Notes: generated from the sequence alone by a model not told the origin. A stretch of 64,000 bases of DNA from a bacterium (GCA_024743115.1 JANSXC010000001.1:117628-181627), one strand, 5' to 3'. Positions 3,411-53,191 are shown, numbered from the stretch's first letter. Program-made: numbers and translations.

Positions 3411-5075
3411 TCACTGCAGCGTGATCGCGAAGCTCGCGAGGTTGCTGGTCGACAGCGCGCTCGGGAGCTGCGGGCAGTTGGGCCAGGCCCAGACGGATTG
3501 CGCGTGGAGCTGCAGGCCGGCGAGTGCGGGGTCCGACGGCATCGCGAGCGGCGCGGTCGCGTTGCCCGCACCGTCCGGAATCATCGGGATGGAGATGAGC
3601 AGCCACGAGGCGACCGGGTCGACGTAGGTAACGATGCCCAGCCCGAAGGGGTCTCCGCCCGTGAAGTCCGCGGCGGTGCCAACGGCGAGGAAGCCGAGGC
3701 CGACCGGCACGTTGGTGTCGGCGAAGCCGAACGCTGCGTTGCCGATCGTCGGCAGGCCGCCCGTGGTCGACAGCGTGTGGGGACCTGCGCAGCCGGGCGT
3801 GCCGGCGCCGTAGAAGGTGGGGGTGGCGTAACCGCCGTAGGTGTGGAACAGGCTGGCGGCACCGAGCTCCGCGTCGAACTCGTCGTCCTGCGAGGCGCCG
3901 GCGATCGCGACGCCGCCGCCGATGCTGACTGCGTGGGCGAAGTTGTCGTTGCGATCGGGGGTCGGGTTCGGGACGAACCCCGCGTTCTGCCACGACCCGT
4001 CGGGATTGCGGCGGAAGAAGTTCGCGGCGCCGGCGTTGCTCTGGCCGTTGACGCGGGCGTGGATCGAGCCCACGAAGGCGACGTCGCCGTCGATCGCCAC
4101 GGCCTGGCCGAAGTGTTCACCGGCCGCGGGATAGGCCGGCGAGACCTTGGCGGTCTCGGGCCACGTGCCGTCGGGTTGACGTTCGAAGAAGTAGGCCGAA
4201 CCGCTGCCGCTGCCCTGGTCGTCGTCGAGCCACGCACCGACGACGACGTGATCGCCGGAGATGCCGACCGAGTAGCCGAAGTAGTCGGTCGCCACGCCGT
4301 CGCTCGCGAGGAGCTTCGCGACCTGCGGCCAGGTGCCGTCGACCTGCCGCTCGAATACGTAGGCCGAGCCCGAGGCCGGACCGTTGTCGTCGTCGAGGTA
4401 GGCTCCGACCGCGATGCGGGTGCCCGCGATCGAGACGGACCAGCCGAAGTCGTCGTTGTTCTGCGGATCGTTCTGCGCCAGCTTGGCGACCTCGAGCCAG
4501 GTGCCGTTGCCCTGACGTTCGAACACGTATGCGGCGCCGGCGGGCGTCGTGCCGTTCGTGCCGTCCGGGCAGCCGACGACCGCGTAGTCGCCGTCGATCG
4601 CGACCGTCGTGCCGAACTCCTGGCCGGCGGCGCCGTCGCTCGCCGTGAGCTTCTGCACCTCGAGCCAGGTACCGTTCGGCTGCTTCTCGAAGACGTAGGC
4701 CGAGCCACTGCTGCTGCCGAGGTCGTCGTCGAACTTGCTGCCAACGATCACGCGATCCGTCGTGATCGCGACTGCGAACCCGAACTGATCCTGGGTGTCG
4801 ATGTCCGCTGGAATCAGCGCGGCGGTCTCGACCCAGGAGCCGGTTGCCGTGCGTTCGCGGATCCACGCGCCGCCCGAGGTGATGAGGCCGTTGTGGTCGT
4901 GGCCGAAGGCGCCGATCACGGCCTGGGTGCCGTCGACACCGACGGCAGAGCCGAACAGATCGCCGGCGGCGGTCGTGCTCGCGGCGAACGGCAGGCCGAT
5001 CTGGAAGTTTTGGGCGGGAAGGACAGCCGCGGCGCCGAGCGCGAGCGGCAGGAGGCGAAGAATGGAGCAGTTCAT
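3411..5075 (-). CDS. Secreted FG-GAP-like (integrin-alpha type) repeat protein carrying the shared C-terminal module
   Basis: Track ORF 3411-5138. The real start is the ATG at 5075 (MNCSILRLLPLALGAAAVLPAQ signal peptide), preceded by an AGGA. It has 7-8 repeats of the form FGxxVAIxGDxxVVGAxxDDxxGxxSGSAYVFE(R/K)QxxGTW. The last ~135 aa (nt ~3411-3818) form the module shared with four other proteins in the window. Confidence 0.85.
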   Translation of the reverse strand: MNCSILRLLPLALGAAAVLPAQNFQIGLPFAASTTAAGDLFGSAVGVDGTQAVIGAFGHDHNGLITSGGAWIRERTATGSWVETAALIPADIDTQDQFGFAVAITTDRVIVGSKFDDDLGSSSGSAYVFEKQPNGTWLEVQKLTASDGAAGQEFGTTVAIDGDYAVVGCPDGTNGTTPAGAAYVFERQGNGTWLEVAKLAQNDPQNNDDFGWSVSIAGTRIAVGAYLDDDNGPASGSAYVFERQVDGTWPQVAKLLASDGVATDYFGYSVGISGDHVVVGAWLDDDQGSGSGSAYFFERQPDGTWPETAKVSPAYPAAGEHFGQAVAIDGDVAFVGSIHARVNGQSNAGAANFFRRNPDGSWQNAGFVPNPTPDRNDNFAHAVSIGGGVAIAGASQDDEFDAELGAASLFHTYGGYATPTFYGAGTPGCAGPHTLSTTGGLPTIGNAAFGFADTNVPVGLGFLAVGTAADFTGGDPFGLGIVTYVDPVASWLLISIPMIPDGAGNATAPLAMPSDPALAGLQLHAQSVWAWPNCPQLPSALSTSNLASFAITLQ

Positions 5076-5257
5076 GATTGGTTTCCTGAAGATCGAGGGC
5101 CGCCGGTTCGCGGCCGCCCTCCACACGGAATCCATCACCGTCGCCCCTCACGACGTTCTGGTTTTTCTCTCCGGAGTGTGTCGTCGACCCACCAATGGGG
5201 CCGCGGCCAGAGCCGGCGGTTGCCCATGCGCGGGCCGCCCGGGAGAATGCGAAGCCG

Positions 5258-5842
5258 ATGGATGCCTCCGCCGTCACGCTGCTGCTCGCCCGGGTCGAGG
5301 AAGGGGACGAGACCGCGACCGACGAGCTCTATCGCGTGGCCTACGACGATCTCCACGCGCGTGCGGGCAAGATGATCGGTGCCGGGGCCGACAACACGCT
5401 GCAGGCGACGGCGCTCGTTCACGAGGCCTGGTTGCGGTTGCGAGGTGCCGGCGGCGATGGCCTGGCGAGCCGGGCGCACTTTCTCGGGGTCGCGGCGAAA
5501 GCGATGCGGTCGGTGCTGATCGACCATGCCCGCAGCAAGCACGCGCAGAAGCGCGGTGGCGGCGCGCACAAGCTGCTGCTCGACGAGGCCCTCGTAGCCT
5601 ACGAGGAGCGGGCGATCGACGTGGTTGCGCTCAATGAAGCGCTCGAACAGCTGCAGCAGCTCGACGAGCGCAAAGCGCGGATCGTCGAGCTGCGATTCTT
5701 CGGCGGGCTGTCGAACGATGAAGTCGCGGCCGTTCTGGGCGTCAGTGTCGCCACCGTTGAGCGCGGCTGGACCACCGCGCGCGCCTGGCTGCGCGGCCAG
5801 CTGGGAGACGCGCCGGGCCCGGGGGGCGACCATCGACCCTGA
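5258..5842 (+). CDS. ECF sigma factor, TIGR02999 / ECF43-like (Ser/Thr-kinase-coupled type) - sigma A
   Basis: Track ORF 5195-5842, started at the ATG at 5258 (MDASAVTLLLARVEEGDETATDELYRVAYDDLHARAGKMIG...NTLQATALVHEAWLRL, region 2). Region 4 is RIVELRFFGGLSNDEVAAVLGVSVATVERGWTTARAWLRGQL. A kinase gene follows immediately. Confidence 0.85.
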   Translation: MDASAVTLLLARVEEGDETATDELYRVAYDDLHARAGKMIGAGADNTLQATALVHEAWLRLRGAGGDGLASRAHFLGVAAKAMRSVLIDHARSKHAQKRGGGAHKLLLDEALVAYEERAIDVVALNEALEQLQQLDERKARIVELRFFGGLSNDEVAAVLGVSVATVERGWTTARAWLRGQLGDAPGPGGDHRP

Positions 5843-8357
5843 CGGATTCGGTCGCGTCTGCGACGCGTTCGAAGCGGCGTTGGACCTCTCGGGTGCGGAC
5901 CGCGCGGCCTACGTCGCGGCGGCGTTCCCCGAGGACGCCGAGTTGCAGCGCGAACTCGAACGGATGCTCGCCGGTCACGAGTCCGATCCGGAGTTTCTGC
6001 GGACGCCCGGGGCAGCAACGCTCGTGGCCGCCGAGGCGACCGGCGAACAGCGCGCGATCGGGCTTGGCCCCGGTGACCGGGTCGGCGACTTCGAACTCGT
6101 GCGTGTGCTGGGATCGGGCGGCATGGGCGTCGTCTTCGAGGCGCGCCAGCTGCAGCCGCAGCGCACCGTCGCGCTCAAGACGATGCGCGCGGGGCTCGGT
6201 GCGGGCGTCGACGCGCGGCGGTTCGGCGAGGAGTCGCGGCTGCTCGCGCGGTTGAGTCATCCGGGTATCGCGCAGGTGCTGGCCGCGGGCGTTCTCGAGG
6301 AGGGGGCCGGTGGATTGCCGTGGTTCGCGATGGAGTTCGTGCCCGGCGCGCGCCCGCTGGACCGGTTCGTTGCCGCCGAGCACCCATCCTGGCCGCAACG
6401 CCTGCAGCTCATACTTCAGGTTTGCGACGCGATTTCGCATGGCCATCTCCGTGGCGTCGTGCATCGCGACCTCAAGCCGGACAACCTGCTCGTCTCCGCC
6501 GAGTCGCGCGTAAAGGTCATCGACTTCGGCATCGCGCGCGCCACCGAGGGCGATGAAGTGCACCTCACGACACAGGGCAAGCTGATCGGCACGCTGCCCT
6601 ACATGGCGCCGGAGCAGATCGAGGGCGATCGGGATGCGATCGACGTGCGCACCGATGTGCACGCGATCGGTGCCGTGCTCTTCCAGGTCCTGACGGGGCG
6701 GCCACCGTGGCCCGTCGACGAGTCTTTCAGCGCCCTCGCGCGCCGGATCGTCGAGCAGGAGCCGCCGCGTCCGAGCCAGGTCGCGGCCGGGGTGTCGCGG
6801 GAGCTCGATTGGATCGTGCAGGCCGCGATGGCCAAGGAGCCCGAGCGTCGCTACCAATCGGTGGCCGAGCTCGCGAACGATCTGCGGCGTTTTCTCGCGC
6901 ACGAACCGCTCGTCGCGGGACCACCGAGCGCAGCCTACCGGGCGCGCAAGTTCGTGCGGCGTCACAAGACGCTGGTCGCGGCGTTCTTGATCCTCGTGCT
7001 AGGCGCGTTCGGCACCGGTTTCGGGCTGCTCGAAGCGCTCGACAAACAGGCGGAGGCGGTTGCCGCGAAGACGGACGCCGAGGAGACCGCGGCGCGCGCG
7101 CTGGCGCAGAACAAGTATCTCGAACGCATGCTCGGTGCGGCTGATCCGTTCGGGCTGGTCACCGTGACGCGCGAGACCACCGTTGCGGAGATGCTCGACG
7201 CCGCGAGCCAGGAGATCGGCGGCGCGTTTCCCGATCAGCCCGACGTCGAAGCCGCGACCCGGCTCTTGATCGGGCTGACCTATCGCGGTCAGGGGCGGTA
7301 CGAAGCGGCGGCGGAGCACTTCGCGGTCGGTCTCAGAATGTATCGCGAGCAGCACCCCGACGGTCACGCCGACGTCGCGCGGTCTCTGCGGCTGCTCGGC
7401 TCGGTGCGCTCGTCGCTCGGAGGCCACGACGAGGCCTTGGCGCTGCTTCGCGAGGCGCTCGCGATGGAGGAGGAACTGCGCCAGCACGAGGGCGTGGAAG
7501 CCCGGGAGTTCGTCCGCACGCACGGCAGTCTTGCCGTTGCGCTGATCCGCGCGAAGCGTTTCGAAGCGGCCGAGAAGCACGCGCGGTCGGCCATCGCCGA
7601 GCTGCGCGCGGCCTACCCCGAGGCCGAGGAGGACCTCGCGATCCTGACCGTGAATCTCGCGAAGATCCAGCGCGCGCGCGGTGACGAGGCCGGCGCGCTC
7701 GCAAGCTACCGGCACTGCGTCGAGGTCTTCGAACGCGTGCTCGCGCCGGATCATCCGAACATCGGGCTCGCGAAGAACAACCTCGGCTTTCTGCTAGCAG
7801 CGCTCGGTCAGAAGCAGGAGGCCGAGCCGATCCTGCGCGCGGCGGTGGCCAACCTGCGCTCCGCGCTGCCGGACCCGCACTCGACGGTCGCGGATGCGTG
7901 CCTCAATCTATCGACGGTGCTCGGGCCGAACGGCAAGGGCGACGAGGCTGTGGCAATGGCGCGTGAGTCGGTGCGCATTTGCCGTGGCGCGCTCGGCGAG
8001 GACCACCCCGACTACGCCAACTCCGTCAACAACCTCGCCTACGTGCTGTGTGACCTCGAGCGGTGGCCGGCGGCCGGCGTCGAGTTCGAACGGCTCGTCG
8101 AGTACTTCCGCCGAACGGCAAGCGCAACGCACCCGCGCGTCACGCTCAATCGCGCGTATGCGCTCGAGTGTGTCGGTTACGCGGATCCCGCGACCGCGTT
8201 GACGAAGCTGAGTGCGCTGTTCGACACGCGCGCCGCCGAGCATGGGGCCGACGAGGAGGTGGCCCAGGCGATCGCGCGCTGCGGCGTGCGGCTCTGCCGG
8301 CATCACCGGGACGCTGCAGGGCTCGCGACGTGGCAGGGGCGACTCGCGAAGGACTGA
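5832..8357 (+). CDS. Ser/Thr protein kinase (Hanks type) with one TM helix and C-terminal TPR region - kinase A
   Basis: Track ORF 5625-8357. Kinase motifs: GSGGMGVVFEA, VALK, HRDLKPDNLL, DFGIAR, GTLPYMAPEQ. TM helix: LVAAFLILVLGAFGTGFGLL. About 430 aa of TPR-like repeats follow (NNLGFLLAALGQKQEAE, NNLAYVLCDLERW). The conserved N-terminal helix (IDPDGFGRVCDAFEAALDL...) begins at about 5832, where the codon is ATC. Canonical alternatives are GTG 5745, TTG 5757 and TTG 5880, so the 5' end is uncertain. Confidence 0.85.
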   Translation: MDPDGFGRVCDAFEAALDLSGADRAAYVAAAFPEDAELQRELERMLAGHESDPEFLRTPGAATLVAAEATGEQRAIGLGPGDRVGDFELVRVLGSGGMGVVFEARQLQPQRTVALKTMRAGLGAGVDARRFGEESRLLARLSHPGIAQVLAAGVLEEGAGGLPWFAMEFVPGARPLDRFVAAEHPSWPQRLQLILQVCDAISHGHLRGVVHRDLKPDNLLVSAESRVKVIDFGIARATEGDEVHLTTQGKLIGTLPYMAPEQIEGDRDAIDVRTDVHAIGAVLFQVLTGRPPWPVDESFSALARRIVEQEPPRPSQVAAGVSRELDWIVQAAMAKEPERRYQSVAELANDLRRFLAHEPLVAGPPSAAYRARKFVRRHKTLVAAFLILVLGAFGTGFGLLEALDKQAEAVAAKTDAEETAARALAQNKYLERMLGAADPFGLVTVTRETTVAEMLDAASQEIGGAFPDQPDVEAATRLLIGLTYRGQGRYEAAAEHFAVGLRMYREQHPDGHADVARSLRLLGSVRSSLGGHDEALALLREALAMEEELRQHEGVEAREFVRTHGSLAVALIRAKRFEAAEKHARSAIAELRAAYPEAEEDLAILTVNLAKIQRARGDEAGALASYRHCVEVFERVLAPDHPNIGLAKNNLGFLLAALGQKQEAEPILRAAVANLRSALPDPHSTVADACLNLSTVLGPNGKGDEAVAMARESVRICRGALGEDHPDYANSVNNLAYVLCDLERWPAAGVEFERLVEYFRRTASATHPRVTLNRAYALECVGYADPATALTKLSALFDTRAAEHGADEEVAQAIARCGVRLCRHHRDAAGLATWQGRLAKD

Positions 8358-8364: not shown

Positions 8365-8751
8365 TCAATCGACGACCGCGTCGGCTTCGATCTCGATCAG
8401 GAACGCGTCGTCGATCAGGCGTGCGACTTCGACCATGGTCGTTGCCGGTCGGGTGTCGCCGAAGAACTCGGCGTGCGCGCGGCCGAATTCCTCCCAGCGC
8501 GAGATGTCGGTGACGAACAGTCGCGTCCTGACGATGTGTTCGCGAGTGGCGCCGAGTTCGGCGATCGCACTCGCGATGATCTCGAGGCTGCGTTTGCTCT
8601 GGGCGTAGCCGTCGCCGGGTGCGAATGGTGCTCCTGCATCGTCGACGGCGACCGTGCCGGTCACGTAGACGTGATCACCGGCGCGGATCGCGCGGCAGTA
8701 GCCGACTCGTTCTTCCCACGGTGCACCCGTCTGGACTCTCTGGCGGTTCAT
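8365..8751 (-). CDS. RidA / YjgF / endoribonuclease L-PSP family protein
   Basis: Track ORF 8365-8796 begins with GTG. I prefer the ATG at 8751 (MNRQRVQTGAPWEERVGYCRAIRAGDHVYVTGT...), which gives about 128 aa, the typical family length. The family-like C-terminus is ATTMVEVARLIDDAFLIEIEADAVV. Confidence 0.8.
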   Translation of the reverse strand: MNRQRVQTGAPWEERVGYCRAIRAGDHVYVTGTVAVDDAGAPFAPGDGYAQSKRSLEIIASAIAELGATREHIVRTRLFVTDISRWEEFGRAHAEFFGDTRPATTMVEVARLIDDAFLIEIEADAVVD

Positions 8752-8921
8752 CGTCGCAGCGTAGCGCCGTTCCGCCTGAGCGCGCGGGTCGGTCACGATC
8801 AGGGCGCGGCGGCATCGGCCGTTCCCGGAAACGTCGCCCGGGACTTTCCCTACCTCGTCCGATCGTCTTTCATCGTGGCCGTGAGAGGTGTCGAGATGCG
8901 GGCGGCTGCGTCGCGGGTGCG

Positions 8922-10439
8922 ATGAGCTGCGCCACGGTGTTGATCGCCATCGCCGGCCGCCGGCAGCGCTTCGACTTGCGCGTTGGCGAACTGGCGACCG
9001 TCGGTCGCAGCTCGACGTGCCAGGTGCAGGTGCGTGACCAGAGCGTGTCGCGCGAGCACTGCGTTGCCGTCCTCGCGGGGGATCGGATTCGGTTGAACAA
9101 CCTGGCCTCGACGCACGGCATCGTGTTCGAGGGCGAGCGTGTCGATCAGTGCGAACTCGCGCCTGGCGAACGATGCCGCCTCGGCAACGCCGTGTTCTTG
9201 TTCGAAGCGCTCGACGGTGTCCGTGCCAAGCCGAAGGGCGGCGAGCCGCTCGCCGACGCGGCGACCGCGGCGGCTACCGTGGATGCATTCGTAACGAAGC
9301 CCGGGCCGCGCGCGGTCGAACCACGAGAGCAGCCCGTCGACGATGTCGAGGCGGCGATCGCGGCGACGGCTGCGGAGCTCGATGGCGAACGCCCCGTCGC
9401 GACGAGTGGCGTGCCCGGGGTCGACATCGAGGGGTTCCGGATCTTCGAGGTGCTGGGGTCGGGCGGGTCCGCGACGGTCTATCGGGCCGAGCAGGTGCGG
9501 CTCGGCCGTGAGGTCGCGCTGAAGGTGTTGCGGCTCGAGGGCTCGGGCGATGACGCTCAGGAGCGCATCGCGGCGTTCCAGCGCGAGGCTCGCGCTGCCG
9601 CTGGTATCGAGGACCCGCGGCTCGTGCAGGTGTTCGACGTCGCAGAGGACGGTGGCGCGCACTACCTCGCGATGGAGTTCGTCAAGGGCGGCAGCCTCGC
9701 GGGCCGGATCAAGCGCCAGGGCCCGTTGGAATGGCGTGACGCGCTCGCGATCCTCACCGACATGACGCACGCTCTGGCGGCCGCGCATGCTCGTGGGCTG
9801 GTCCACCGCGACGTCAAGCCCGCGAACATCCTGCTCACGGAAAAGGGCGAGGCGCGGCTGACCGACCTCGGGCTCGCCGGGAGCGCGTTGAGCCAGGGGG
9901 GTGACGAGGTGGGAGTGGGTACGCTCGCGTTCATGGCGCCCGAACAGATCCGCCGGCAGGCGGTCGACGCCCGCACGGACATCTATGCCCTCGGTTGCAC
10001 GATCTATGCGGCGCTCGTCGGCCGTGCACCGTTCACGGGCGATCAGAAGGCCATCGCCCGTGGCCATCTCGAGCAGCCGCCCGAGTCGTTCCAGCGGCTC
10101 GGGATCAAGCTGCCGTGGCACCTCGAGCAGCTCGTGATCGATTCGATGATGGCCAAGTCGCCCGCCGATCGCCCGGCTGATACCGCAGAACTGCTCGAGC
10201 GCGTCGGCAAGCTCGTGCTGCCGGGCAGCGAGCCCGTGGCCGCCGCCCAGCGCGCCCGTGCCCGCCGCGACGTCGAGGTCGTGCGCGTGCGCAACCCCGG
10301 CCCGGCCCACAAGCGCCTGCTCGCCCGCATCCTCAGCGAGCTCATCGTCGTCTCCATCATCGCCGCGATGGTGATCGCGAGTCTGCTCGCGCTGAAGATC
10401 GGCTGGGGTTTCGACATCTACGCGTTGTTCGGGCGGTAG
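8922..10439 (+). CDS. FHA-domain Ser/Thr protein kinase with C-terminal membrane anchor - kinase F
   Basis: Track ORF 8619-10439, started at the ATG at 8922 (MSCATVLIAIAG...). FHA-like segment: ATVGRSSTCQVQVRDQSVSREHCVAV...NNLASTHGIVFEGERV. Kinase motifs: GSGGSATVYRAEQ, VALKVL, HRDVKPANILL, DLGLAG (DFG variant), GTLAFMAPEQ. Terminal TM helix: LIVVSIIAAMVIASLLAL. Confidence 0.85.
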   Translation: MSCATVLIAIAGRRQRFDLRVGELATVGRSSTCQVQVRDQSVSREHCVAVLAGDRIRLNNLASTHGIVFEGERVDQCELAPGERCRLGNAVFLFEALDGVRAKPKGGEPLADAATAAATVDAFVTKPGPRAVEPREQPVDDVEAAIAATAAELDGERPVATSGVPGVDIEGFRIFEVLGSGGSATVYRAEQVRLGREVALKVLRLEGSGDDAQERIAAFQREARAAAGIEDPRLVQVFDVAEDGGAHYLAMEFVKGGSLAGRIKRQGPLEWRDALAILTDMTHALAAAHARGLVHRDVKPANILLTEKGEARLTDLGLAGSALSQGGDEVGVGTLAFMAPEQIRRQAVDARTDIYALGCTIYAALVGRAPFTGDQKAIARGHLEQPPESFQRLGIKLPWHLEQLVIDSMMAKSPADRPADTAELLERVGKLVLPGSEPVAAAQRARARRDVEVVRVRNPGPAHKRLLARILSELIVVSIIAAMVIASLLALKIGWGFDIYALFGR

Positions 10440-20439: not shown

Positions 20440-20531
20440 GCGGTCTCTGGGTTGGCGAGAACTTTCCAATGCAAAGTTCGAGGCATGCTAGCCCGCGGCG
20501 CAGGTCACGTAAAGAGCCGCCGGGCGATCGA

Positions 20532-43917: not shown

Positions 43918-45426
43918 TCAGCGGACGAACAGCATCGCCAGCCGTTCGCGTTCTGCGGCGTCGATCACGGGGATACGCGCCTTCACCCGTACGGCCGCTC
44001 CGTCGTTGGTGAGTTCTGCCGTGAGCAGCGCCTTGGCCAGTGCCAGTGCGCCTTCGTCCTCGCGCAGTTCCCAGGGTAGGCACGCTGCGGGCGCGATCGT
44101 TGCGAGTATGCCCTCCAGTAGCGGGCACAGTTCGGCCGCGTCCTCTTCGTCGCGTGCCATGACTTCCCCCGCGATTTGCGCGCCCTTGGTGTCGAAGGTC
44201 ACGCGCAGTTCGGCGCCGAGGATCGTCGGCAGCTGAGCGAAGCGCAGGAACGGCCACAGCTTCGATTGGCGCGGGACGACGACGTGGATCGCAGCAGCGC
44301 GGTCGCGCAGCAGTTCGGCGCCGCGCTCCGGACGCGGCTTGCCCGCGCCCATGCCCGAGGTCGCGAGTAACCCGTGTTCGGAGAACTCGATGTCGCCGTT
44401 GAGAAGCTTCGGGCGGCGCTTCTGCTGTCGTTCGGTGGCCTCGCCGATCTCGCGCTGGTGCGGTTCGATCTCGCCCGCGGCCTGCCACGTGATCGCGAAC
44501 GGGTTGACCTCGTCGGCCCGGCCCTGAACCACGATACATGAGTGATCGAAGCGGGCGTTGCCGTAGCGGTGGACGAAGGCGAACGGCAGCTCACTACCGG
44601 CGTCGCTGAGGATCTGCGCGCCGTTCTTCTGTGCCGGCGACAGCGTGCCGCCTGCCTGCAGGATTCGCCGCGCCATCGAGACGGCCGCGAACCTGCGGCT
44701 CAGTGGTGCGAGCCACGTCATGTCAGGCAGTCGCGAGTGATCCACGACGATCGCGGCGTCGAAGTTGAGCGGCAGTCGCAGCGTCGTCGCGTCGAGGCGA
44801 CGGCGAACGCGCGTCGTCGGCTTGCCGCGAAGGCTGGCAACCGCCTGTCGGGCCCGGGTGCGCAGTGTCGGTGGCGCGGCTTGGATGCCCTCGATCGCCA
44901 GGCATTCGGCGATGGCCCCCCGCACGCCGCGGCGCTCGAGCGTGCTGATCGCGAGTTCGATGTCGAGCAGGCGCGCACGATCCCGGTCCGACTCTGGCTC
45001 GAGCTCGGCGATCCCGGGCAACGCGCGAGCGAGGAACTGGCGCAGGCCCATGTCCGACGCGTCGATGCCGAGCGCCGCGAAGTGGAATCTCGCGTCGGTC
45101 ATCGCGAGCAGATCACCCGGACCGTGACAGAGCAGCATCGCGAGACCGCGCCTGCCGTGTTTGCGGTAGTCGTGCACGAAGCCGTCCGCGAATAGCGGCA
45201 CGAAGTGGTCGTGGCCCGGGATCTCTTCGCCGGTGCGCGCGATGTTCCAGACTTCGAGCTGGCCGTCGCGGCCGCGCCGCCAGCGGGACTCCTGGAACAC
45301 GCCGCCTGCTTCGACGCGCGCAGCGACCTGGACCGCGGGTTCGAGCCAGGGCGGGTCGGGGCCGTCACCGTCCTGGGCCCGCGTAGGAGCTGCGAGGATC
45401 AGAAGTGCGATGGCGACCGTTCTCAT
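43918..45426 (-). CDS. Hypothetical secreted protein (502 aa)
   Basis: This is the 3' part of track ORF 43918-47301, started at the ATG at 45426 (MRTVAIALLILAAPTRAQ signal peptide). The upstream 625 codons of the track ORF are antisense to kinase E and Arg-rich. No family recognised. The gene is divergent from kinase E with a 75-nt gap. Confidence 0.6.
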   Translation of the reverse strand: MRTVAIALLILAAPTRAQDGDGPDPPWLEPAVQVAARVEAGGVFQESRWRRGRDGQLEVWNIARTGEEIPGHDHFVPLFADGFVHDYRKHGRRGLAMLLCHGPGDLLAMTDARFHFAALGIDASDMGLRQFLARALPGIAELEPESDRDRARLLDIELAISTLERRGVRGAIAECLAIEGIQAAPPTLRTRARQAVASLRGKPTTRVRRRLDATTLRLPLNFDAAIVVDHSRLPDMTWLAPLSRRFAAVSMARRILQAGGTLSPAQKNGAQILSDAGSELPFAFVHRYGNARFDHSCIVVQGRADEVNPFAITWQAAGEIEPHQREIGEATERQQKRRPKLLNGDIEFSEHGLLATSGMGAGKPRPERGAELLRDRAAAIHVVVPRQSKLWPFLRFAQLPTILGAELRVTFDTKGAQIAGEVMARDEEDAAELCPLLEGILATIAPAACLPWELREDEGALALAKALLTAELTNDGAAVRVKARIPVIDAAERERLAMLFVR

Positions 45427-45501
45427 CGGGCGCCAGTCTACCGATCCGATGACCGGCGGTTGGCACTTGTCCTGCCCGACCCGCCTTTGCACTGTGGCGG
45501 T

Positions 45502-48500
45502 GTGACCGATCGCCCGGACCATGCTCGCCTGCGTGAGGTCTTCCTCGGGGCCTGCGATCTGCCCGCGGCGGAACGGGCGGAGTATCTGGCGACGGCGTGT
45601 GGTGACGATCAGGCGCTGCGGGACGCGGTCGAGCGGCTGCTCGCGCAGGATCGTGACGGTGACGAAGGGTTTGCGGGGTCGAACGCGCCCGATCAGCCGG
45701 AGCAGCCCGAGCGCATCGGACCGTTTCGGGTCCTCGGGCTGATCGGCGAAGGCGGTATGGGGCGCGTCTACCTCGCGGAGCAGGACAAGCCGCGTCGTCG
45801 CGTCGCGGTGAAGGTCCTCCGTGCGGGGCTGGCGTCCGCGGCCAATCGGCGGCGATTCGAACACGAGGCCGAGGTGCTCGGCCGACTGCAGCATCGCGGC
45901 ATTGCGCAGGTGATCGAGTTCGGCATGGCCGCGGGGCTCGGTGAGCCGATTCCGTTCCTCGCCATGGAGTTCGTCGATGGTGTGCCGTTTCGCGAAGCGG
46001 TGATCGGGATGGCGATCGAGGAACGGATCACGCTGTTCCTCGCGGTCTGCGACGCGGTCGAGCACGCGCATCGCCACGGTGTCATCCATCGCGATCTCAA
46101 GCCGGAGAACGTGCTCGTCGTCGACGGCCAGCCCAAGGTGCTCGACTTCGGGATCGCGCGCGTTCACGGCGAGGCCAGTCGCGAGCAGATGACGATGACG
46201 GGGCAGATCGTCGGCACGCTGGCCTACATGTCGCCCGAGCAGGTGCGCGGCGAGGTCGATCTCGATACCCGCAGCGATGTCTACGCGCTCGGTGTCCTGC
46301 TCTACGAATTGCTCGCGGGGCGGCTGCCGCTCGAGACCGATCGGCACTCGTTCGTCGAAGCACTGCGTATCGTCCAGGACGTGGCGCCGCGCACCCTCGG
46401 CGCCATTGCGCCGGAGTGTCGGGGTGATCTCGAGGTCCTCGTCGGCAAGTGTCTCGAGAAAGACCCCGAGCGCCGTTACGCGGGAGTCGGAGCGCTCGCT
46501 GCCGATGCTCGGCGCTTCCTCGCCAAAGAACCGATCGAGGCGCGTTCGCCGACGACCTGGTATCAGCTGCGCAAGTTTGCAGCGCGGCATCGCGTATCCG
46601 TTGCGGCTGGAGTGGTCGTGACTCTTGCGCTCGTCGTCGGCTTCGTTGCGACGCTGGTCTACGCCAATCGCGCGGAGCGATTGCGCATCGAGGGACTGCA
46701 CGACACGTATCGTGCCACGATTGCGGCGGCGTACGCGGCAATCGCATCGGATCCCCATCGCGCGAAGCGTTCGGCCGAGGCGGCGCCCGAGTCGCTGCGG
46801 GGATTCGAGTGGCGGCTGCTCGCTGCGGCACTCGACCGCAGCTGCGTGGCGACGGGTGACGCGTTCGTGGTTCGCCGGTCCGGCGTGGCTGGTGACCGAG
46901 TAATGGCCGCGGTCGTGGCCGGTGGCGAGGTGGTCCTCCACGACGTGAGCGCTGGCGAAGTGATCGCGCGGGTGCCGACGGGTCTCCCCGACGCTGCCGA
47001 GCCACGACTGTCCGCGAACGGTCGCAGGGTGCTCGTCGGTGCACCGGCGTTGCCGGGGTTGCGGTTGCTCGCGACGGACGGTGCGGTCGTTCGCGACTTC
47101 TTCGCCGCCGAACCGACCGCGGCTCAGGCACTCCTGAGTCCCGATGGTGCAACTTTGCTCTCCTGCCACCCTGGCCGTGCCATCGAACTGCTGCCCGCGG
47201 GCGCGGGGACTGCGCGCACGCTCCCGACTGCGATGATCGCGGGCTGGTCGGCGGATGGCACGCGTGTACTCCGTGGTCGTGCGGCGTCGCTCCACCTGCA
47301 CGATGCCGTAACGGGTCGCCTAATGCGGGAGCTGCGCCACAACGGGCTCGGTCCCTCGGCGGGTCCGATGTTCGCGGAGGATGCCGGCGAGTTCGTCATC
47401 GGCAGTCTGCGACTGCTCGAACTACGGGACGCGGATTCCCTCGAACTCATCGAGCGGGTTCCCGTCGACCGCCACCTGCTGGCGGCCGTCGCGTGTGATC
47501 GGTCGGCGCGGCGGCTCGCGGCATCGTCCAAGGAGCCGGAGCTCGGTACGACTCGCCTGTTCGATCGGGAGCAACGCCATCAGTCCGCCGTACACGGTGG
47601 CGGCGCCATGCGATCGCTCGCATTCGACGAGAGCACGGGGCTCTGGTTCGGCGCCAATGGTGCCGGTGTGCGGCCGTTCTCACCGACGGTCGGTCGCGGA
47701 AGGGTCCTAGGCGGCGATCGCACGCATGACAGCTTCGTCTACAAGGCGAGCTTCTCGGCGGCTGGTCGGCGGATCGTGACCTCGGGGTGGGACGGGAAGG
47801 CGCGGGTTTTCGACGCGTGGGACGGGCGGTTGCTGGCGACGATCGCGAGCTTCGACTGGGCGTCCGGTATCGCGTTCCTCGACGAGGACACGGTTGCGAT
47901 CCTGCATCCGACGCGTGAATCCGTCAGGCGCTGTTCATTGACGACCGGTGAATCGTCCGTGGCGCAGGTGGCCGAGCGGTGGGCGGAGATCGCACCGATC
48001 GGCGCGCGCACCGTACCGTTCGAATGGCATGCCGGCCTCGCGGCGGTGGTGTTCGAACGCGGGGTAGAACTGACGGCTGTGAAGCAAGGGATTCACCGGG
48101 TCGGCCCGGACGGCGAACATCGCCCGTTCCTCGAGGTCGACAGCGGCGTCGTGGCACTGGCCTGGCGGCCGGAGCGGCGAGCACTCGTGTTCGCGACCGA
48201 AAACGGTCGGCTGCAGCACTGGCGCGTGCCCGTCGGGGACGGTGATCCGACCTGCGTGCTGCGGCGAACCGGGCTCACGGGCCTGGCCTATGCGCTCGAT
48301 ATCTCACCCGATGGCAGCCGAGTCGCGATCGGCCTCGATACCGGCACGATCGAACTATGGGATTTGCCCGCGGGTCGTCAACTCGTCGAACTGACGGGGC
48401 ACGACAACTACGTGCACGACGTCGAGTTCTCCCCCGATGGCACACAGCTGGTTTCCGCGTCGGGCGACGGCACGGTGCGCATCTGGGATACCAAGCCACT

Positions 48501-48534
48501 CGCGCAGCGCATGCGCGACGCCTGGGATTGGTAG
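45502..48534 (+). CDS. Ser/Thr protein kinase with TM helix and C-terminal WD40 beta-propeller - kinase E
   Basis: Track ORF 45205-48534, started at the GTG at 45502 (VTDRPDHARLREVFLGACDLPAAERAEYLATACGDDQALRDAVERLL). Kinase motifs: GEGGMGRVYLAEQ, VAVKVL, HRDLKPENVLV, DFGIARV, GTLAYMSPEQ. TM helix: VSVAAGVVVTLALVVGFVATLVYA. Classical WD40 repeat: LTGHDNYVHDVEFSPDGTQLVSASGDGTVRIWD. Confidence 0.85.
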   Translation: MTDRPDHARLREVFLGACDLPAAERAEYLATACGDDQALRDAVERLLAQDRDGDEGFAGSNAPDQPEQPERIGPFRVLGLIGEGGMGRVYLAEQDKPRRRVAVKVLRAGLASAANRRRFEHEAEVLGRLQHRGIAQVIEFGMAAGLGEPIPFLAMEFVDGVPFREAVIGMAIEERITLFLAVCDAVEHAHRHGVIHRDLKPENVLVVDGQPKVLDFGIARVHGEASREQMTMTGQIVGTLAYMSPEQVRGEVDLDTRSDVYALGVLLYELLAGRLPLETDRHSFVEALRIVQDVAPRTLGAIAPECRGDLEVLVGKCLEKDPERRYAGVGALAADARRFLAKEPIEARSPTTWYQLRKFAARHRVSVAAGVVVTLALVVGFVATLVYANRAERLRIEGLHDTYRATIAAAYAAIASDPHRAKRSAEAAPESLRGFEWRLLAAALDRSCVATGDAFVVRRSGVAGDRVMAAVVAGGEVVLHDVSAGEVIARVPTGLPDAAEPRLSANGRRVLVGAPALPGLRLLATDGAVVRDFFAAEPTAAQALLSPDGATLLSCHPGRAIELLPAGAGTARTLPTAMIAGWSADGTRVLRGRAASLHLHDAVTGRLMRELRHNGLGPSAGPMFAEDAGEFVIGSLRLLELRDADSLELIERVPVDRHLLAAVACDRSARRLAASSKEPELGTTRLFDREQRHQSAVHGGGAMRSLAFDESTGLWFGANGAGVRPFSPTVGRGRVLGGDRTHDSFVYKASFSAAGRRIVTSGWDGKARVFDAWDGRLLATIASFDWASGIAFLDEDTVAILHPTRESVRRCSLTTGESSVAQVAERWAEIAPIGARTVPFEWHAGLAAVVFERGVELTAVKQGIHRVGPDGEHRPFLEVDSGVVALAWRPERRALVFATENGRLQHWRVPVGDGDPTCVLRRTGLTGLAYALDISPDGSRVAIGLDTGTIELWDLPAGRQLVELTGHDNYVHDVEFSPDGTQLVSASGDGTVRIWDTKPLAQRMRDAWDW

Positions 48535-48556: not shown

Positions 48557-49081
48557 CTACGCGTCGCGCTCTGCGAGCTCGGCGCGCAGCCAGGCCTTGG
48601 CCATCCGCCAGTCGTTCTTCACGGTGCGCTCGCTGACCGCGAGTTCGGTGGCGATCTCGGCGATGCCGAGCCCGCCGAAGAAGCGCAGTTCGACGACGCG
48701 CGCCTGCCGCGGATCCAGCTTCGCGAGCTCGTCCATGGCATCGGAGAGCGCGATCACGTCGAGCTCGTCGAAGTCCGGGGGCTCGGCACCGGCCGGCGCC
48801 GCCGATAACGTTACGTGCGCGGCGCCTCCGCCGCGCTTGTCGGCGTGTGCCCGGCGCGCGTGATCGAGCAGCACGTTCCGCATCGCGTTGGCCGAGATCG
48901 CGAAGAAGTGAGTCTGCGATCGCCAATCGAGTTCGGGGTTGTGTTGTAGCCGCAGCCACGCCTCGTTGACGATTGCGGTCGGCTGCAGCGTGTGGCCCGG
49001 CTTCTGCTTCAAGTAGCGCGCGGCGAGCGCGCGCAGTTCGCGGTAGAGCGCGGGCAGCGGATCGTGATCTGGTGGGGGCAT
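48557..49081 (-). CDS. ECF sigma factor, TIGR02999 / ECF43-like - sigma E
   Basis: Track ORF 48557-49399, started at the internal ATG at 49081 (MPPPDHDPLPALYRELRALAARYLKQKPGHTLQPTAIVNEAWLRL). Region 4: RVVELRFFGGLGIAEIATELAVSERTVKNDWRMAKAWLRAEL. It is convergent with kinase E, with 22 nt between the stops. Confidence 0.85.
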   Translation of the reverse strand: MPPPDHDPLPALYRELRALAARYLKQKPGHTLQPTAIVNEAWLRLQHNPELDWRSQTHFFAISANAMRNVLLDHARRAHADKRGGGAAHVTLSAAPAGAEPPDFDELDVIALSDAMDELAKLDPRQARVVELRFFGGLGIAEIATELAVSERTVKNDWRMAKAWLRAELAERDA

Positions 49082-49128: not shown

Positions 49129-49725
49129 TCAGCCCTGCCGCCCTTCGATCGCGGCGAGCAGAACCGCCGTCGCGAACACGAGTCGCCGGTCGATCGGGTT
49201 GCTCTGGTCGATCGCGACCTCGAGGCGATAGACGAACGGGTTGAAGCGCTGTTTGAACTTTACCACGTGGCGGTCGCCGGCTTTGAGCTGGAACGACTGC
49301 GGTACGAGGTCGGAGACGAATCGACGGATGAGCGCGAGGCCGGCGCTGTCCTCCTCGAGCTGCGCGGTCGGCTGGTCGCCGGCGGGCAGGATCTCCCACG
49401 AGTCACGGAGCAGCGAGCGGAAGCCCTTGCGACGGGCGGTACCGATCACGCTGTTGCTGCGCGGGTCGACGATGTCGTAGGCGGCCGAGAAGTCGAGGAT
49501 CTGGCGCGCGTTGATGTGGATCAGCGGTTCCTGTTTGGACTCGTCCGTGTAGATCCGGATGTCCTCGCGCAGCTTGAACGCCTTCTGCGCGCAGAAGCCG
49601 ACGATGCGGTCGCCGTCGTACACGTGGAAGCTCGCGCCGAGAAACTTGAAAACCTTGCGGCGGATCACGTAGCGGTCGAGTTCGAACAGTTCGGTCATGC
49701 GCGGCAGCCTCTCTATCAGCGCCAT
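49129..49725 (-). CDS. LURP-one-related / scramblase-like (YxjI-like, tubby C-terminal-like fold) protein
   Basis: Track ORF 49129-49839, started at the ATG at 49725 (MALIERLPRMTELFELDRYVIRRKVFKFLGASFHVYDGDRIVGF...). The pattern Y.I.rKvf...G..f.v.D, followed by repeated beta-hairpin-like segments and a C-terminal hydrophobic helix (LVFATAVLLAAIE), resembles the LOR/YxjI family. The assignment is by eye only. Confidence 0.55.
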   Translation of the reverse strand: MALIERLPRMTELFELDRYVIRRKVFKFLGASFHVYDGDRIVGFCAQKAFKLREDIRIYTDESKQEPLIHINARQILDFSAAYDIVDPRSNSVIGTARRKGFRSLLRDSWEILPAGDQPTAQLEEDSAGLALIRRFVSDLVPQSFQLKAGDRHVVKFKQRFNPFVYRLEVAIDQSNPIDRRLVFATAVLLAAIEGRQG

Positions 49726-49729
49726 CCTA

Positions 49730-50908
49730 TCAGCCAGCGTGGCGCTCGCCGCAGCCGAAGCAATGGGTCGTCGGGAGAGACTCACCGGTGCCCGGCGCGA
49801 GCAGATGGCGCGGCAGCCGTAGAACGTCACCACACTCACGGCAGTTTCGCAGCGTCGCGCAGGTCGTGCCGCAGCTGGGGCAGAAGCGGGCCTCGGGGCC
49901 GCAGGCGTGGCCGCATGCGATGCAGTGTGCGGTAGTCGATGCGGTCGCAGACGTGGGCACCGGGGCAGGCGTCCGGGCGGCGCGTCTTTCGGCCGCGAGC
50001 GCAGCGGCGGCTTCGTCGAGCGCCACGCAGGCCTGGGGCAAGCGGGTTGCCAGCGGTCCCGCGTAGGATTCCGCGAGCGAGCGCGATTCGCGGCGTTCTC
50101 GGCGGTGTTCTTGGGACCGCATGCGATCGTGATGCTCCACCGCGAGTTCGTGGTTGCAGAGCAGTCCCTCGAGCGCCGTGAGTCGTTGCGAGACCCAGTC
50201 GCGCAGCGTCTCGTGTTCGACCGCGTCCTCGGTCGCGAGCAGCGAACGCGTGCTCGTGATCGCGTGACGCGCGTTCGTGCTCGGTGCGTGCAGCTCGGTG
50301 ATTGCCTGGGTGAGTTGCCCTTCGAGTGTGTTGCGGCGGCGATCGTGCGCGCGCACGAGGCCGGGGTAGGTCAAGGTCAGGAAAGCGATCGTTGCGCAAG
50401 TCATCCCGAGGTAGCAGAACGGCCGCCAGCCGTCGCCGTAGACCGCGACGACGACGATCGCAGTCGTGAACGCGGCGAGCGGAGCGGCCGCCGTCCAGGC
50501 GAAGCGATGATCCACGATCGTAGCGACGTGTAGACCGGTCAGCGGATACGAGACCGCGGCCGCGATACCGACCGCGAGCCACGCACTGACATCGTGAGAA
50601 CGCAGCACGGCGAACGCGGCGAAGAAGAGCGAGTACGTCAGCGCGAGCAGCAGGAACTGGCCGAGCCGAAAGCGATCGAGTCGACCGGGAGACCGCAGCT
50701 CGACGAGGTACCAGAAGCCGGCGCCGAACAGGAGGACTGCGAGACCGGTGAGCTTGACGAACACCTCGGTGTCGGACGCTGGTACGGGCAGTTCGGGATC
50801 TCGGCGCGGTGCGCTCGGCAACGCGAGCGTCGTGCAGAACGCGATCACCGACAGCAAGAGCACGACGACCATGAGCTCGATGACCGTGAATCCGCGCTGA
50901 GTTCGCAT
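49730..50908 (-). CDS. Membrane protein with prepilin-type N-terminal motif, ~5 further TM helices and a C-terminal double zinc ribbon
   Basis: 392-aa ORF with an ATG start. The N-terminus MRTQRGFTVIELMVVVLLLSVIAF matches the type IV pilin / pseudopilin cleavage-methylation motif (G-F-T-x-I-E-L). Hydrophobic helices include LTGLAVLLFGAGFWYLV, FLLLALTYSLFFAAFAVL and AAFTTAIVVVAVYG. The C-terminus carries two Cys4 ribbons: CIACGHACGPEARFCPSCG and CRECG...CFGCG. Confidence 0.65.
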   Translation of the reverse strand: MRTQRGFTVIELMVVVLLLSVIAFCTTLALPSAPRRDPELPVPASDTEVFVKLTGLAVLLFGAGFWYLVELRSPGRLDRFRLGQFLLLALTYSLFFAAFAVLRSHDVSAWLAVGIAAAVSYPLTGLHVATIVDHRFAWTAAAPLAAFTTAIVVVAVYGDGWRPFCYLGMTCATIAFLTLTYPGLVRAHDRRRNTLEGQLTQAITELHAPSTNARHAITSTRSLLATEDAVEHETLRDWVSQRLTALEGLLCNHELAVEHHDRMRSQEHRRERRESRSLAESYAGPLATRLPQACVALDEAAAALAAERRAARTPAPVPTSATASTTAHCIACGHACGPEARFCPSCGTTCATLRNCRECGDVLRLPRHLLAPGTGESLPTTHCFGCGERHAG

Positions 50909-51040
50909 GCCTGGTCCGACGCCTGGGCTGCACCGACTATTCCCCGGGGCGTACAGGTCGGGCGCGGCAGTGCCCGGTCACCATGTGGCCGATACCATGT
51001 GACCGGCCGTTCGGGCGCTACTATCCGAACGAAGGAAACC

Positions 51041-53191
51041 ATGGCCACGTCATCCGAGCTCCTTTCCACGTCCTGGTTGCTGTTGCTGCGGTCCTCCTGT
51101 TTCGCGGCGGCGGTGTCAGTGACGGTGATCGCCCAGGACTTCCGCACGCTCGAGGTGGTCGGCTACCAGTCCGCGGCCTACGACCATCTGCGCGATCGAC
51201 TCACGGTGCTCGGGCCGAAGAACGCGACGTTCGACTACGACGGCACTGCGCGCCTGCGCGGGCCACGGCTGGACGCGGTGGTGCCGGTAGACCTCGTATT
51301 CGAAGAACACACCGGCAGCATGCTGGGGGTGCTGCGGGCGTTCTCGGGCCGGTTGCTGGCCGTGCGCCGCGACGGCCTCGAATGGCGCTACCTGGCGCCG
51401 CCCACGACGCCACCGGCACGCAACCTGTTCAGCCTGGCCTACGATTCGGCGCGTGCTGAGACGGTACTGTTCGGCGGGTTCAACCCGACGAGCAACGGCC
51501 TCGACGAGACCTGGGTGTTCGATGGCGTGGACTGGACGCAGCGCTCACCCGCAGTGAGTCCGCCCGGTCGACGAGGCGCTGCGATGGCTTTCGACTCCAC
51601 GCGTGGGGTCGTTGTGCTGTTCGGTGGCTACGGGACCTCGGCGTTCGGTGACACTTGGGAGTGGAACGGCACGACCTGGACGCAGGTGCAACCTATTGCG
51701 AGTCCGGCCGGGCGACAGGGCGCGGCGATGGCTTACGACCCGATCCGCGATCGCTGCGTGCTCTATGGCGGGAACAACGGTGCCGGGTTCTGGTATCCAC
51801 AAACCTGGGAATACGACGCCCAGACCTGGGTGCTGCGGACGAACACACCGACCGGCCCCGCGTTTCGCGAGCAGTCCGCGTTCGTCTGGAATCCGCGCGT
51901 GGGTCGTTGCGAGCTCGTCGGTGGCAAGCGCGCCGGCAACGTGTTGTTCGATCGCTGGCAGTGGGACGGCACGGTCTGGCACAACTCGAGCCTGGCCATG
52001 CAGCCGAGCGACGCGCGGTTCATGGCCGCGTTTCCCGGCGGTGACGGCGTGTTCGCATTCACAGCCGCGGACGGGGTCTCGGCGGAGGCGACGTGGCGGT
52101 TCGACAGAAGCGGGTGGCAGCAGCTCGCCGTCGCGACGCCGTCGATCACTGCCGTGCACGAACCCGTGGTGTGCAGCAGCCCGGGTGCGGTCTACCTCCT
52201 CGAGGCCACCGATCCGATGACGCTGCACGAGTTCGACGGCTCCAACTGGCGCGTGGCGTCGAGCACGGGGCCGGCGCGACGGGCCAACGTCGCGATGACC
52301 TACGATTGGGCCAACGGCGAGGTGGTGGTGTTCGGTGGGGGCGACGGCACGCAGGTCTTCGGCGAGACCTGGACGTTCGATGGCGTGAGCTGGACGCAGC
52401 AAGCGCCCGCGAATCAGCCGCCGGCGCGAGAGCTCGGCGCGATGACGTACGATCCGCAGCTCGGGCGCGTCGTCCTCGCCGGTGGATGGAGCCAGATCGC
52501 CTGGCTAAACGACACTTGGCAATGGAGTGGCACGGACTGGACCGCGTTTCCCGCCATGCCGTCGCCGCCCTCGGACAGCGTGCTGCTGATGGAATACGAC
52601 TCGACCCGATCGCGCATCGTGGCCGTGACGACCAGTCGGCTCGGTGGCACGTTGCAGGTCAGTACGCTCGAGCCGAGTGGCTGGACGTCGGTCGGCACGG
52701 GGGTGAATCTGGGGCCGAACCTGTTCCGCGTTCGGTCCCTGATCGGACTGCCCTATGCGCGGGGGGTGCTGGCGATCGACGATCGCGGCGTGCACTCGTT
52801 GAGCGCGCAGGTCGGCACGGCCACCGACTACGGCCAGGCTTGCACCGTCACCGCACCGCTGCTCACTGCGCGGGAGTGGCCTCGGCTCGGCAGTCCGGAC
52901 TTCGGCATCGACGTGACCGGCGCACCCGCGAGCGGAATCGTCGCCATGCTGGGCGCCGATCGGCAGGGACCGGGCGGCACGGTGGGCAACTGTCCGCTGC
53001 TCGTGCAATCAGGGCAGGCCGCGTTGCTGGTGCAGTCGAACGCTCTCGGCTTCGCGACGGTGCCCTTGCCGTTGCCCGAGATCCTCGGCTTCGTCGGGCT
53101 CGACCTCTACTTCCAGGCGGCTGTGCTTGACGTGTCGGCGCCGAGTGGGTTCACGACGACCCGCGGACTGCAGGTCACGCTGGGCCACTGA
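51041..53191 (+). CDS. Secreted Kelch-repeat beta-propeller protein carrying the shared C-terminal module (Kelch 2)
   Basis: Track ORF 50594-53191, started at the ATG at 51041, preceded by GAAGGAAACC (MATSSELLSTSWLLLLRSSCFAAAVSVTVIAQ). Kelch-type repeats are of the form ...P.gR.gaamayD..R...vLyGG......DTWEW(N/D)G..W. The last ~121 aa (nt ~52826-53191) are the shared module. Confidence 0.85.
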   Translation: MATSSELLSTSWLLLLRSSCFAAAVSVTVIAQDFRTLEVVGYQSAAYDHLRDRLTVLGPKNATFDYDGTARLRGPRLDAVVPVDLVFEEHTGSMLGVLRAFSGRLLAVRRDGLEWRYLAPPTTPPARNLFSLAYDSARAETVLFGGFNPTSNGLDETWVFDGVDWTQRSPAVSPPGRRGAAMAFDSTRGVVVLFGGYGTSAFGDTWEWNGTTWTQVQPIASPAGRQGAAMAYDPIRDRCVLYGGNNGAGFWYPQTWEYDAQTWVLRTNTPTGPAFREQSAFVWNPRVGRCELVGGKRAGNVLFDRWQWDGTVWHNSSLAMQPSDARFMAAFPGGDGVFAFTAADGVSAEATWRFDRSGWQQLAVATPSITAVHEPVVCSSPGAVYLLEATDPMTLHEFDGSNWRVASSTGPARRANVAMTYDWANGEVVVFGGGDGTQVFGETWTFDGVSWTQQAPANQPPARELGAMTYDPQLGRVVLAGGWSQIAWLNDTWQWSGTDWTAFPAMPSPPSDSVLLMEYDSTRSRIVAVTTSRLGGTLQVSTLEPSGWTSVGTGVNLGPNLFRVRSLIGLPYARGVLAIDDRGVHSLSAQVGTATDYGQACTVTAPLLTAREWPRLGSPDFGIDVTGAPASGIVAMLGADRQGPGGTVGNCPLLVQSGQAALLVQSNALGFATVPLPLPEILGFVGLDLYFQAAVLDVSAPSGFTTTRGLQVTLGH

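Follow-up and report, generated by a model that had tools for sequence, protein, structure and literature searches.

The 64-kb stretch of DNA considered here, referred to as the window (64,000 nucleotides; GCA_024743115.1, JANSXC010000001.1:117628-181627), belongs to an uncultured Planctomycetota genome, an NCBI metagenome-assembled genome (MAG) with locus tags NXI31_, and is a cluster of modules built around extracytoplasmic function (ECF) sigma factors. It holds six Hanks-type Ser/Thr kinases (A to F), five stand-alone ECF sigma genes (A to E, lettered as the kinases they accompany), a sixth ECF sigma fused to further domains, and five secreted proteins ending in a common C-terminal domain, here called the tag. 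At least two of the kinase-sigma pairs are consistently linked to a secreted β-propeller gene, which is probably the target of the sigma. The guanine-plus-cytosine (GC) content is ~69% across the whole window; genes were called from the GC content of third codon positions and then checked with Pfam.

Kinases, sigma factors and their arrangement

The six kinases had been proposed in an earlier note on this DNA, made from the sequence alone, and all six are upheld: they score 124-159 bits against Pkinase (cut-off 31.7 bits) and keep intact catalytic motifs, with a G-loop, VAxK, HRDxKxxN and DFG (DLG in kinase F). Their sensor domains differ, as had also been noticed, and Pfam recognizes TPRs in A and D (weakly in C), PD40 in B, WD40 in E, and FHA in F. 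Kinases A to E each possess a single membrane helix directly after the kinase domain, so that a periplasmic location is predicted for their TPR, PD40 or WD40 parts. This succession of kinase, membrane helix and repeats is frequent in Planctomycetota (PMC11032199).

Kinase A (5832-8357, plus strand; Pkinase 132 bits, TPR_12 119 bits) has its membrane helix at residues 381-399, followed by TPRs predicted as periplasmic. The gene stands, but not the start at 5832 given to it previously, as the codon there is ATC; the start must be TTG 5757, GTG 5745 or TTG 5880. Kinase B (14270-17902, minus strand; 124.5 bits, helix at residues 397-415) harbors PD40 repeats in a long extracytoplasmic region, and kinase C (21184-24165, minus strand; 159 bits, helix at residues 393-411) a helical, TPR-like extracytoplasmic region. 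Kinase D (35695-38196, minus strand; helix at residues 377-395) is a Hanks kinase with TPRs, and kinase E (45502-48534, plus strand; 149.5 bits, helix at residues 365-383) ends in a WD40 propeller (77 bits). Kinase F (8922-10439, plus strand; Pkinase 158 bits, FHA 44 bits) carries a C-terminal tail anchor, with a helix at residues 475-493 of 505. The kinase domain is preceded in all five sigma-linked kinases by a helical extension of 60-85 residues with the loose pattern DRL..a.EaA.dL ... L.dev..lLa (5832-6110, 17633-17902, 23920-24165, 37984-38196 and 45502-45750 in kinases A, B, C, D and E, respectively). The kinase PknS has an 83-residue N-terminal extension and periplasmic TPRs (PMC13147305), and by analogy the extension of kinases A to E may be a docking place for the sigma.

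All five stand-alone sigma genes of the earlier note match Sigma70_ECF/r2/r4 in Pfam, and no neighbouring gene encodes an anti-sigma Pfam domain, in agreement with what had been reported. Their common assignment to the TIGR02999/ECF43 type holds for two of them only. Sigma A (5258-5842, plus strand; PF07638 171 bits) and sigma E (48557-49081, minus strand; PF07638 155 bits) pass the TIGR02999 cut-off of 126.15 bits with 205.4 and 184.1 bits, respectively. For sigma B (17899-18549, minus strand; Sigma70_r4_2/r2), sigma C (20532-21152, minus strand) and sigma D (38213-38911, minus strand), the top NCBIfam model is TIGR02984 (Planctomycetaceae-specific sigma subfamily 1), at 105, 72 and 73 bits, under its cut-off of 183.75 bits. 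The two sets also differ in region 2.2. It reads QATA in sigma A (followed by LVHEAW) and QPTA in sigma E (followed by IVNEAW), with a Thr present and the acidic DAED/DxxD patch absent. In sigma B (QPED), C (ESID) and D (STGD), one or two acidic residues are retained, next to a Ser or Thr in C and D, not in B.

The gene arrangements of modules B to E measure as previously stated: a GTGA stop/start overlap of sigma B and kinase B at 17899-17902, a gap of 31 nt from kinase C to sigma C, sigma D 16 nt upstream of kinase D, and convergent stops 22 nt apart in module E. Sigma E is the final gene of a three-gene operon on the minus strand, after two genes (49129-50908) encoding a pilin-like membrane protein (49730-50908) and a 198-residue protein (49129-49725). 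The former, encoded by the first gene of the operon, displays a prepilin-type N-methylation motif, several membrane helices and, at the C-terminus, a double zinc ribbon; such a protein is unusual beside an ECF43-type sigma and could have a regulatory role.

A sixth ECF sigma, absent from the earlier note, lies at 28208-31234 (plus strand). It comprises Sigma70_r2/r4 with a canonical region 2.2 (EADE), to which a single membrane helix and five CarboxypepD_reg repeats (194 bits) are fused. Planctomycetes ECF sigmas with long C-terminal extensions have already been described (PMC7671368). The fused sigma resembles them in that a very long extension comes after sigma regions 2 and 4, and departs from them in that this extension is ordered, consisting of the membrane helix and the repeats. 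Upstream of it lies the gene of a secreted protein of ~420 residues with no known domain (26880-28145, plus strand).

Tagged propellers and their linkage to the modules

An iterated hidden Markov model (HMM) of the tag finds just five open reading frames (ORFs) in the window, the same five that had been singled out as C-terminally tagged. All five proteins are composed of a signal peptide, a propeller (FG-GAP, Kelch or sialidase-like) and the one common C-terminal domain. Their C-terminal 90 residues match no Pfam or NCBIfam family, including those of known sorting tags (T9SS CTD, PEP-CTERM).

The best documented of them is a protein of 798 residues (24217-26613, minus strand; 100% identical to NCBI protein NXI31_00535), whose gene is divergent from that of the ~420-residue secreted protein. 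It displays a signal peptide, a β domain, a sialidase-like β-propeller and the tag. Its AlphaFold (AF2) model is all-β (predicted local distance difference test, pLDDT, 87.7; predicted template modelling score, pTM, 0.85), and the tag forms in it a separate β-sandwich of the last ~100 residues, with no membrane helix. A Foldseek comparison of the model with the PDB returns six-bladed sialidase-type propellers as best matches; as these are only about 9% identical, the model indicates a generic propeller with no assignable enzyme. The protein had been called an orphan, which it is not: at least 215 homologues exist, nearly all in Planctomycetota MAGs, and the family is multi-copy, with no fewer than six members in its own MAG and eight or more in a genome of 7.19 Mb.

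The first of the other four is an FG-GAP_2 protein (3411-5075, minus strand, ATG at 5075), with a signal peptide and 7 FG-GAP_2 repeats (292 bits). Its gene is divergent from sigma A over a 182-nt intergenic region, and the gene map thus confirms the arrangement first described. Two Kelch proteins were assigned by Pfam and the tag HMM. The gene of Kelch 1 (10601-12769, plus strand) starts 161 nt downstream of kinase F, and that of Kelch 2 (51041-53191, plus strand, start corrected to ATG 51041) is divergent from the operon ending in sigma E, 132 nt away. The fifth is an FG-GAP_3, VCBS-like protein with 7 repeats (40010-42745, minus strand, start corrected to ATG 42745), which is not in an operon with sigma D. 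As had been noted, two small genes separate it from module D; both (39133-39489 and 39568-40005, plus strand) encode secreted proteins. Its gene is also divergent from that of an FRG-domain protein (42989-43888, plus strand).

Starting from an alignment of 18 homologues of the 798-residue protein, 80 loci were collected from GTDB species genomes, all of them Planctomycetota MAGs. These and four earlier loci were scanned with HMMs of the window kinases, the sigmas, the 798-residue family and the tag. They yield 83 independent loci for the family, with both flanks complete in 50. A kinase or sigma abuts the family gene in 31 of the 83 loci (37%), and a full kinase-sigma pair does so in 21; among the 50 loci with complete flanks, the corresponding counts are 24 and 17. 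Kinases are neighbours of the family in 25 cases, versus 6.6 expected from random placement in the same loci (z = 9). The density of kinase domains, 1.10 per 10 kb at distances of up to 1 kb from the family gene, is down about tenfold within 6 kb, with 0.05-0.12 per 10 kb at 6-10 kb. That of sigmas has two maxima, at 0-1 kb and at 2-4 kb, the second at a distance equal to the length of a kinase. Compared with the ~0.05-0.12 kinases per 10 kb found 6-10 kb from a family gene in these related loci, the six kinases in 64 kb of the window make its module density unusual.

The order of the family gene (A), the kinase (K) and the sigma (S) varies among loci, with the A>K>S of the window, a divergent S<K<>A and K>S>A all represented. 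That the genes have stayed linked despite such rearrangements speaks against a simple inheritance of synteny. The partner sigmas span several clades, including ECF43-like sigmas, the clade of sigma C (clade 4 of the sigma tree, with members in trios of kinase, sigma and 798-residue family) and that of the fused sigma at 28208-31234. The family tree partly tracks these clades, as eight of the nine clade 4b partners fall in one subtree, and a Mantel comparison of the family with its partner sigmas gives a weak correlation (r = 0.12, p ~0.02). The fused type of sigma recurs as the immediate neighbour of the family in L003 (7234-9849), L004, L015, L078, L065 and L014; because the fusion recurs in this position in several MAGs, the pairing looks functional rather than the result of a chance fusion.

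Module A provides the second consistent linkage. For the FG-GAP_2 protein, a single clear orthologue was found (65% identity, locus L167), and its gene likewise forms a divergent trio together with a PF07638 sigma and a gene of the Pkinase-TPR type; another tagged gene comes after the trio, and the flanks are unrelated to those of the window. In homology searches with the FG-GAP_2 and Kelch 2 proteins, the matches were dominated by repeat similarity, and the search with Kelch 2 yielded no clear orthologue. More generally, of the 39 remaining tagged genes of the loci, eight lie within 300 bp of a kinase or sigma, versus 2.6 expected (z = 3.6). In a related locus (L170, 3568-10394), a PF07638 sigma is followed by an 873-residue FecR-TPR protein, a small WD40/PD40 protein and a tagged Kelch protein, with the FecR-like regulator in place of a kinase.

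The link does not extend to all sigma-kinase pairs. A metagenome scan based on an alignment of ECF43-like sigmas found such pairs in nearly all the longer loci, from many unrelated organisms with GC contents of 0.46-0.71, and no tags near the pairs from these unrelated metagenomes. The pairing is thereby confirmed as general, and the link with the tag is lineage-specific.

Promoters, mechanism and alternative readings

A de novo bipartite search in 93 upstream regions of the 798-residue family gave TGTCCG-N16-(G/A)CGCT. A weight matrix built from 17 sites (GATTYCgTGTCCGC-N16-GACGCTYC) was then used to scan 1.45 Mb on both strands (2.9 Mb of strand). It returned 27 matches of at least 20 bits, 10 of them outside the training set. 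Thirteen lie upstream of kinase-sigma operons, 12 upstream of family genes (two after correction of the start call) and two precede other tagged genes, located several kb away from the family; these positions account for all 27. Divergent S<K<>A intergenic regions contain one copy facing each way, towards the kinase-sigma operon and the family gene (L037 3530-3659; L044 9746-9840; L082 5363-5446; L064 2595-2702). The motif goes with a subclade sister to that of sigma C, and its distribution along the sequences is the usual signature of a putatively autoregulated ECF sigma that would also drive its neighbour.

In the window itself, no shared motif, such as the earlier note had suggested looking for, was found, and that of the related loci is absent: the matrix has no match of at least 15 bits there, the best two, at 14.2 and 13.8 bits, being both intragenic. 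A 9-mer common to window regions, ATCCGTGTG, is no commoner than in shuffles, and the module A intergenic region aligned with that of L167 displays no clear bipartite motif. Upstream of the 798-residue gene (26614-26652, minus strand), GAATCCGTGTGCGG resembles the -35 half of the related-loci motif, and GCGCT comes after 9 nt, where the motif has 16; this may be a promoter site that has degenerated or been rearranged.

The 798-residue gene heads a co-directional run that continues with kinase C, sigma C, the gene of a secreted-looking 619-residue protein (18610-20469, minus strand; N-terminal signal-like sequence, no Pfam match), sigma B and kinase B. The successive gaps are of 51, 31, 62 and 60 nt, followed by the 4-nt overlap. 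With no terminator-like site on the minus strand of the run, the arrangement fits co-transcription from the 798-residue gene to kinase B.

The interpretation that we favour, with moderate confidence, is that the window is a hotspot of independent ECF-sigma/kinase modules, in each of which the kinase would activate its sigma and the sigma would transcribe its own operon together with the adjacent tagged propeller gene. The extracytoplasmic, presumably periplasmic, domain of the kinase would sense a signal, and the kinase would then phosphorylate its partner sigma, as in the known pairs. In sigma A and E, the phosphorylated residue would most likely be the Thr that replaces the acidic patch of region 2.2, by analogy with EcfP and EcfK. 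The modified sigma would bind RNA polymerase, leading to transcription of the operon and of the neighbouring β-propeller gene. What we infer here is the phosphorylation, the control of neighbouring genes within the window and whatever link modules B, D, E and F may have.

Several observations weigh against this interpretation, and part of them would be explained by coincidence, in a lineage rich in kinases, ECF sigmas and tagged proteins of which the window is merely a dense portion. Within the window, a kinase or sigma is the immediate neighbour of three of the five tagged genes and of 10 of the 29 other genes (hypergeometric P ~0.21); the proximity there is not beyond chance, and the window alone is thus insufficient for this interpretation. 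Two other genes stand between module and tagged gene for both D and E, no tagged gene adjoins module B, and kinase F stands without a sigma. In the related loci, whose gene extents are stop-to-stop ORFs and not curated gene calls, about half to two thirds of the 798-residue-family genes have no adjacent kinase or sigma, as is the case for two paralogues in the same MAG. Kelch-type tagged genes are mostly apart from modules: only one or two of nine stand beside one in the loci and, of three looked up individually, one adjoins a sigma with a FecR-like protein and no kinase, and the other two adjoin neither. For modules lying over 3 kb from the anchoring gene, a tagged neighbour is present in three to four of nine cases, which is not significant (p ~0.09). 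The promoter matrix was partly trained on sites picked near 798-residue-family starts, and it has no convincing match in the window, where no other shared motif was found either. Finally, sigma C retains an ExxD-like acidic patch, so that phosphorylation of its region 2.2 may be unneeded.

A coincidental neighbourhood is nevertheless improbable as the overall explanation, since it leaves unexplained three features: an enrichment around the 798-residue family that declines with distance (z = 9-11 versus random placement), a promoter motif common to, and found only upstream of, kinase-sigma operons and tagged genes, and a module A trio conserved between unrelated flanks. Pure chance is unlikely for modules A and C. 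It is possible for modules D, E and F, the link of which is unproven; the linkage of the Kelch and FG-GAP_3 genes is likewise unproven or weak. The idea of units made of kinase, sigma and tagged target, with synteny in relatives as its check, thus survives for module A and for module C with the 798-residue family; it is not supported for module B, which lacks a tagged gene, for kinase F, which lacks a sigma, and for most Kelch genes, which are rarely linked.

Another explanation, somewhat less probable still, regards the tagged propellers as parts of the sensor as well: they would bind a ligand and contact the TPR or WD40 repeats of the kinases, or the repeats of the fused sigma, in a manner reminiscent of FecA-FecR-FecI. 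Kinases A to E do expose protein-interaction repeats on the extracytoplasmic side, and the C-terminal domain common to all these secreted propellers could be a docking or a sorting module. The tight yet rearranging linkage and the partial co-diversification fit interacting partners, as does the order sigma > FecR-like-TPR > WD40 > tagged Kelch in L170. A co-receptor contact with the kinases is, however, conjectural, most members of the 798-residue family have no adjacent module, and the shared promoter already accounts for the linkage as co-regulation. Besides, the regulator accompanying the tagged partner varies (kinase with TPR, WD40 or PD40, CarboxypepD_reg fusion, or FecR-like protein) and the sigma is constant, for which a transcriptional target is the simpler account; the constancy of the sigma therefore favours "target" over "co-sensor". 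A further combination, to which we likewise give little weight, would make the tagged propellers both outputs and extracytoplasmic co-receptors of a Planctomycetota-specific cell-surface signalling system, the triad having been duplicated and diversified as a unit. In it, the propeller with its dedicated C-terminal domain would pass the signal to a receptor Hanks kinase, which would phosphorylate the ECF sigma, or else to a membrane-tethered sigma.

A RidA gene (8365-8796) lies on the opposite strand between kinases A and F. Over kinase E, a minus-strand ORF (43918-47301, 1127 residues) was ruled out as a shadow ORF by codon-position GC and Pfam, both of which favour the plus-strand kinase from ~45.5 kb (by GC, the plus frame from about 45.7 kb). 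The real-looking part of this ORF (43918-45426, minus strand) encodes a secreted protein of 502 residues with no Pfam match, divergent from kinase E at 75 nt. A gene at 54434-56353 (plus strand) belongs to the animal haem peroxidase family (PF03098, 499 bits), and the second gene downstream of it (58719-61994) encodes a protein of 1091 residues with a weak di-haem cytochrome c peroxidase signal. At the other end, a partial gene cut by the window border (3-1019, minus strand) encodes a secreted-looking product with GRELWxTDGT repeats (ELWxxDG-like) and no Pfam match. Exact-protein look-up returned no database record for the window gene at 34299-35663 and for P0011.

Comparison with known systems

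Kinase-linked ECF sigmas are abundant in Planctomycetota, where groups ECF59-ECF62 and ECF217 were reportedly described by Jogler in 2012 and by Casas-Pastor in 2021; to our knowledge, only Proteobacteria ECF43 pairs have been studied experimentally. For work on sigma phosphorylation outside Proteobacteria, the present loci offer several starting points: a recurrent third partner, consisting of multi-copy secreted propellers with a common C-terminal domain; a candidate promoter motif that precedes the kinase-sigma operon as well as the propeller partner; and the association of the same propeller family with a membrane-tethered sigma fusion. They also give a functional handle on an expanded, uncharacterised family of secreted proteins.

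The pairing of a sigma with a kinase, in the absence of an anti-sigma, defines groups ECF43, ECF59-62, ECF217 and ECF283 (PMC7826278). This half of the proposed organisation is thus already part of the ECF classification. No description of the propeller partner, the shared promoter motif or the CarboxypepD_reg-sigma pairing was found in the literature consulted, which did not cover the ECF group descriptions and some of the work on Planctomycetes; nor were described targets or promoters found there for kinase-linked ECF sigmas of Planctomycetota.

Sigma A and E compare best with ECF43, represented by EcfP/PknT of Vibrio parahaemolyticus and EcfK/PknS of Xanthomonas citri. Direct phosphorylation, which had been credited to one Vibrio pair only, has also been demonstrated for EcfK/PknS and for a Hyphomonas pair (PMC8999054, PMC13147305). 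The ECF43 consensus of region 2.2 is QTTA, with the Thr phosphorylated in EcfP and corresponding to Thr51 of EcfK, a PknS phosphosite (PMC8999054, PMC13147305). Sigma A and E likewise pass TIGR02999, keep the Thr and lack DAED, and they stand, with no anti-sigma, beside a receptor kinase that crosses the membrane once, carries an N-terminal extension and has repeats predicted to be periplasmic. In the known pairs the sigma controls nearby genes, those of a type VI secretion system for EcfK and polymyxin-resistance genes for EcfP. In contrast, the modules of the window are multi-copy and clustered, their putative outputs are secreted β-propellers with a lineage-specific C-terminal domain, and the genes of module E are convergent and not co-transcribed.

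Sigma B, C and D are closer to ECF59-ECF62 and ECF217, being of Planctomycetes type, located beside kinases and devoid of an anti-sigma; the likeness is one of best match (TIGR02984, under its cut-off) and not of group HMMs. Kinase-linked groups other than ECF43 keep acidic residues in region 2.2, together with Ser/Thr (PMC8999054). The texts consulted on ECF59-ECF62 and ECF217 mention no tagged-propeller third gene and no promoter motif of the kind described above.

The modules finally share three components with FecI-FecR-FecA: an ECF sigma is combined with a regulator that crosses the membrane and has a periplasmic domain, and next to them lies the gene of an envelope or secreted protein, which would be under the control of the sigma. 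No FecR or TonB-dependent receptor domain occurs in the scanned window genes, a FecR-like protein being found only in the related locus L170. The two systems differ in that a sensing role of the propeller is conjectural here, and in that the regulator is a kinase, which would activate its sigma rather than release it.

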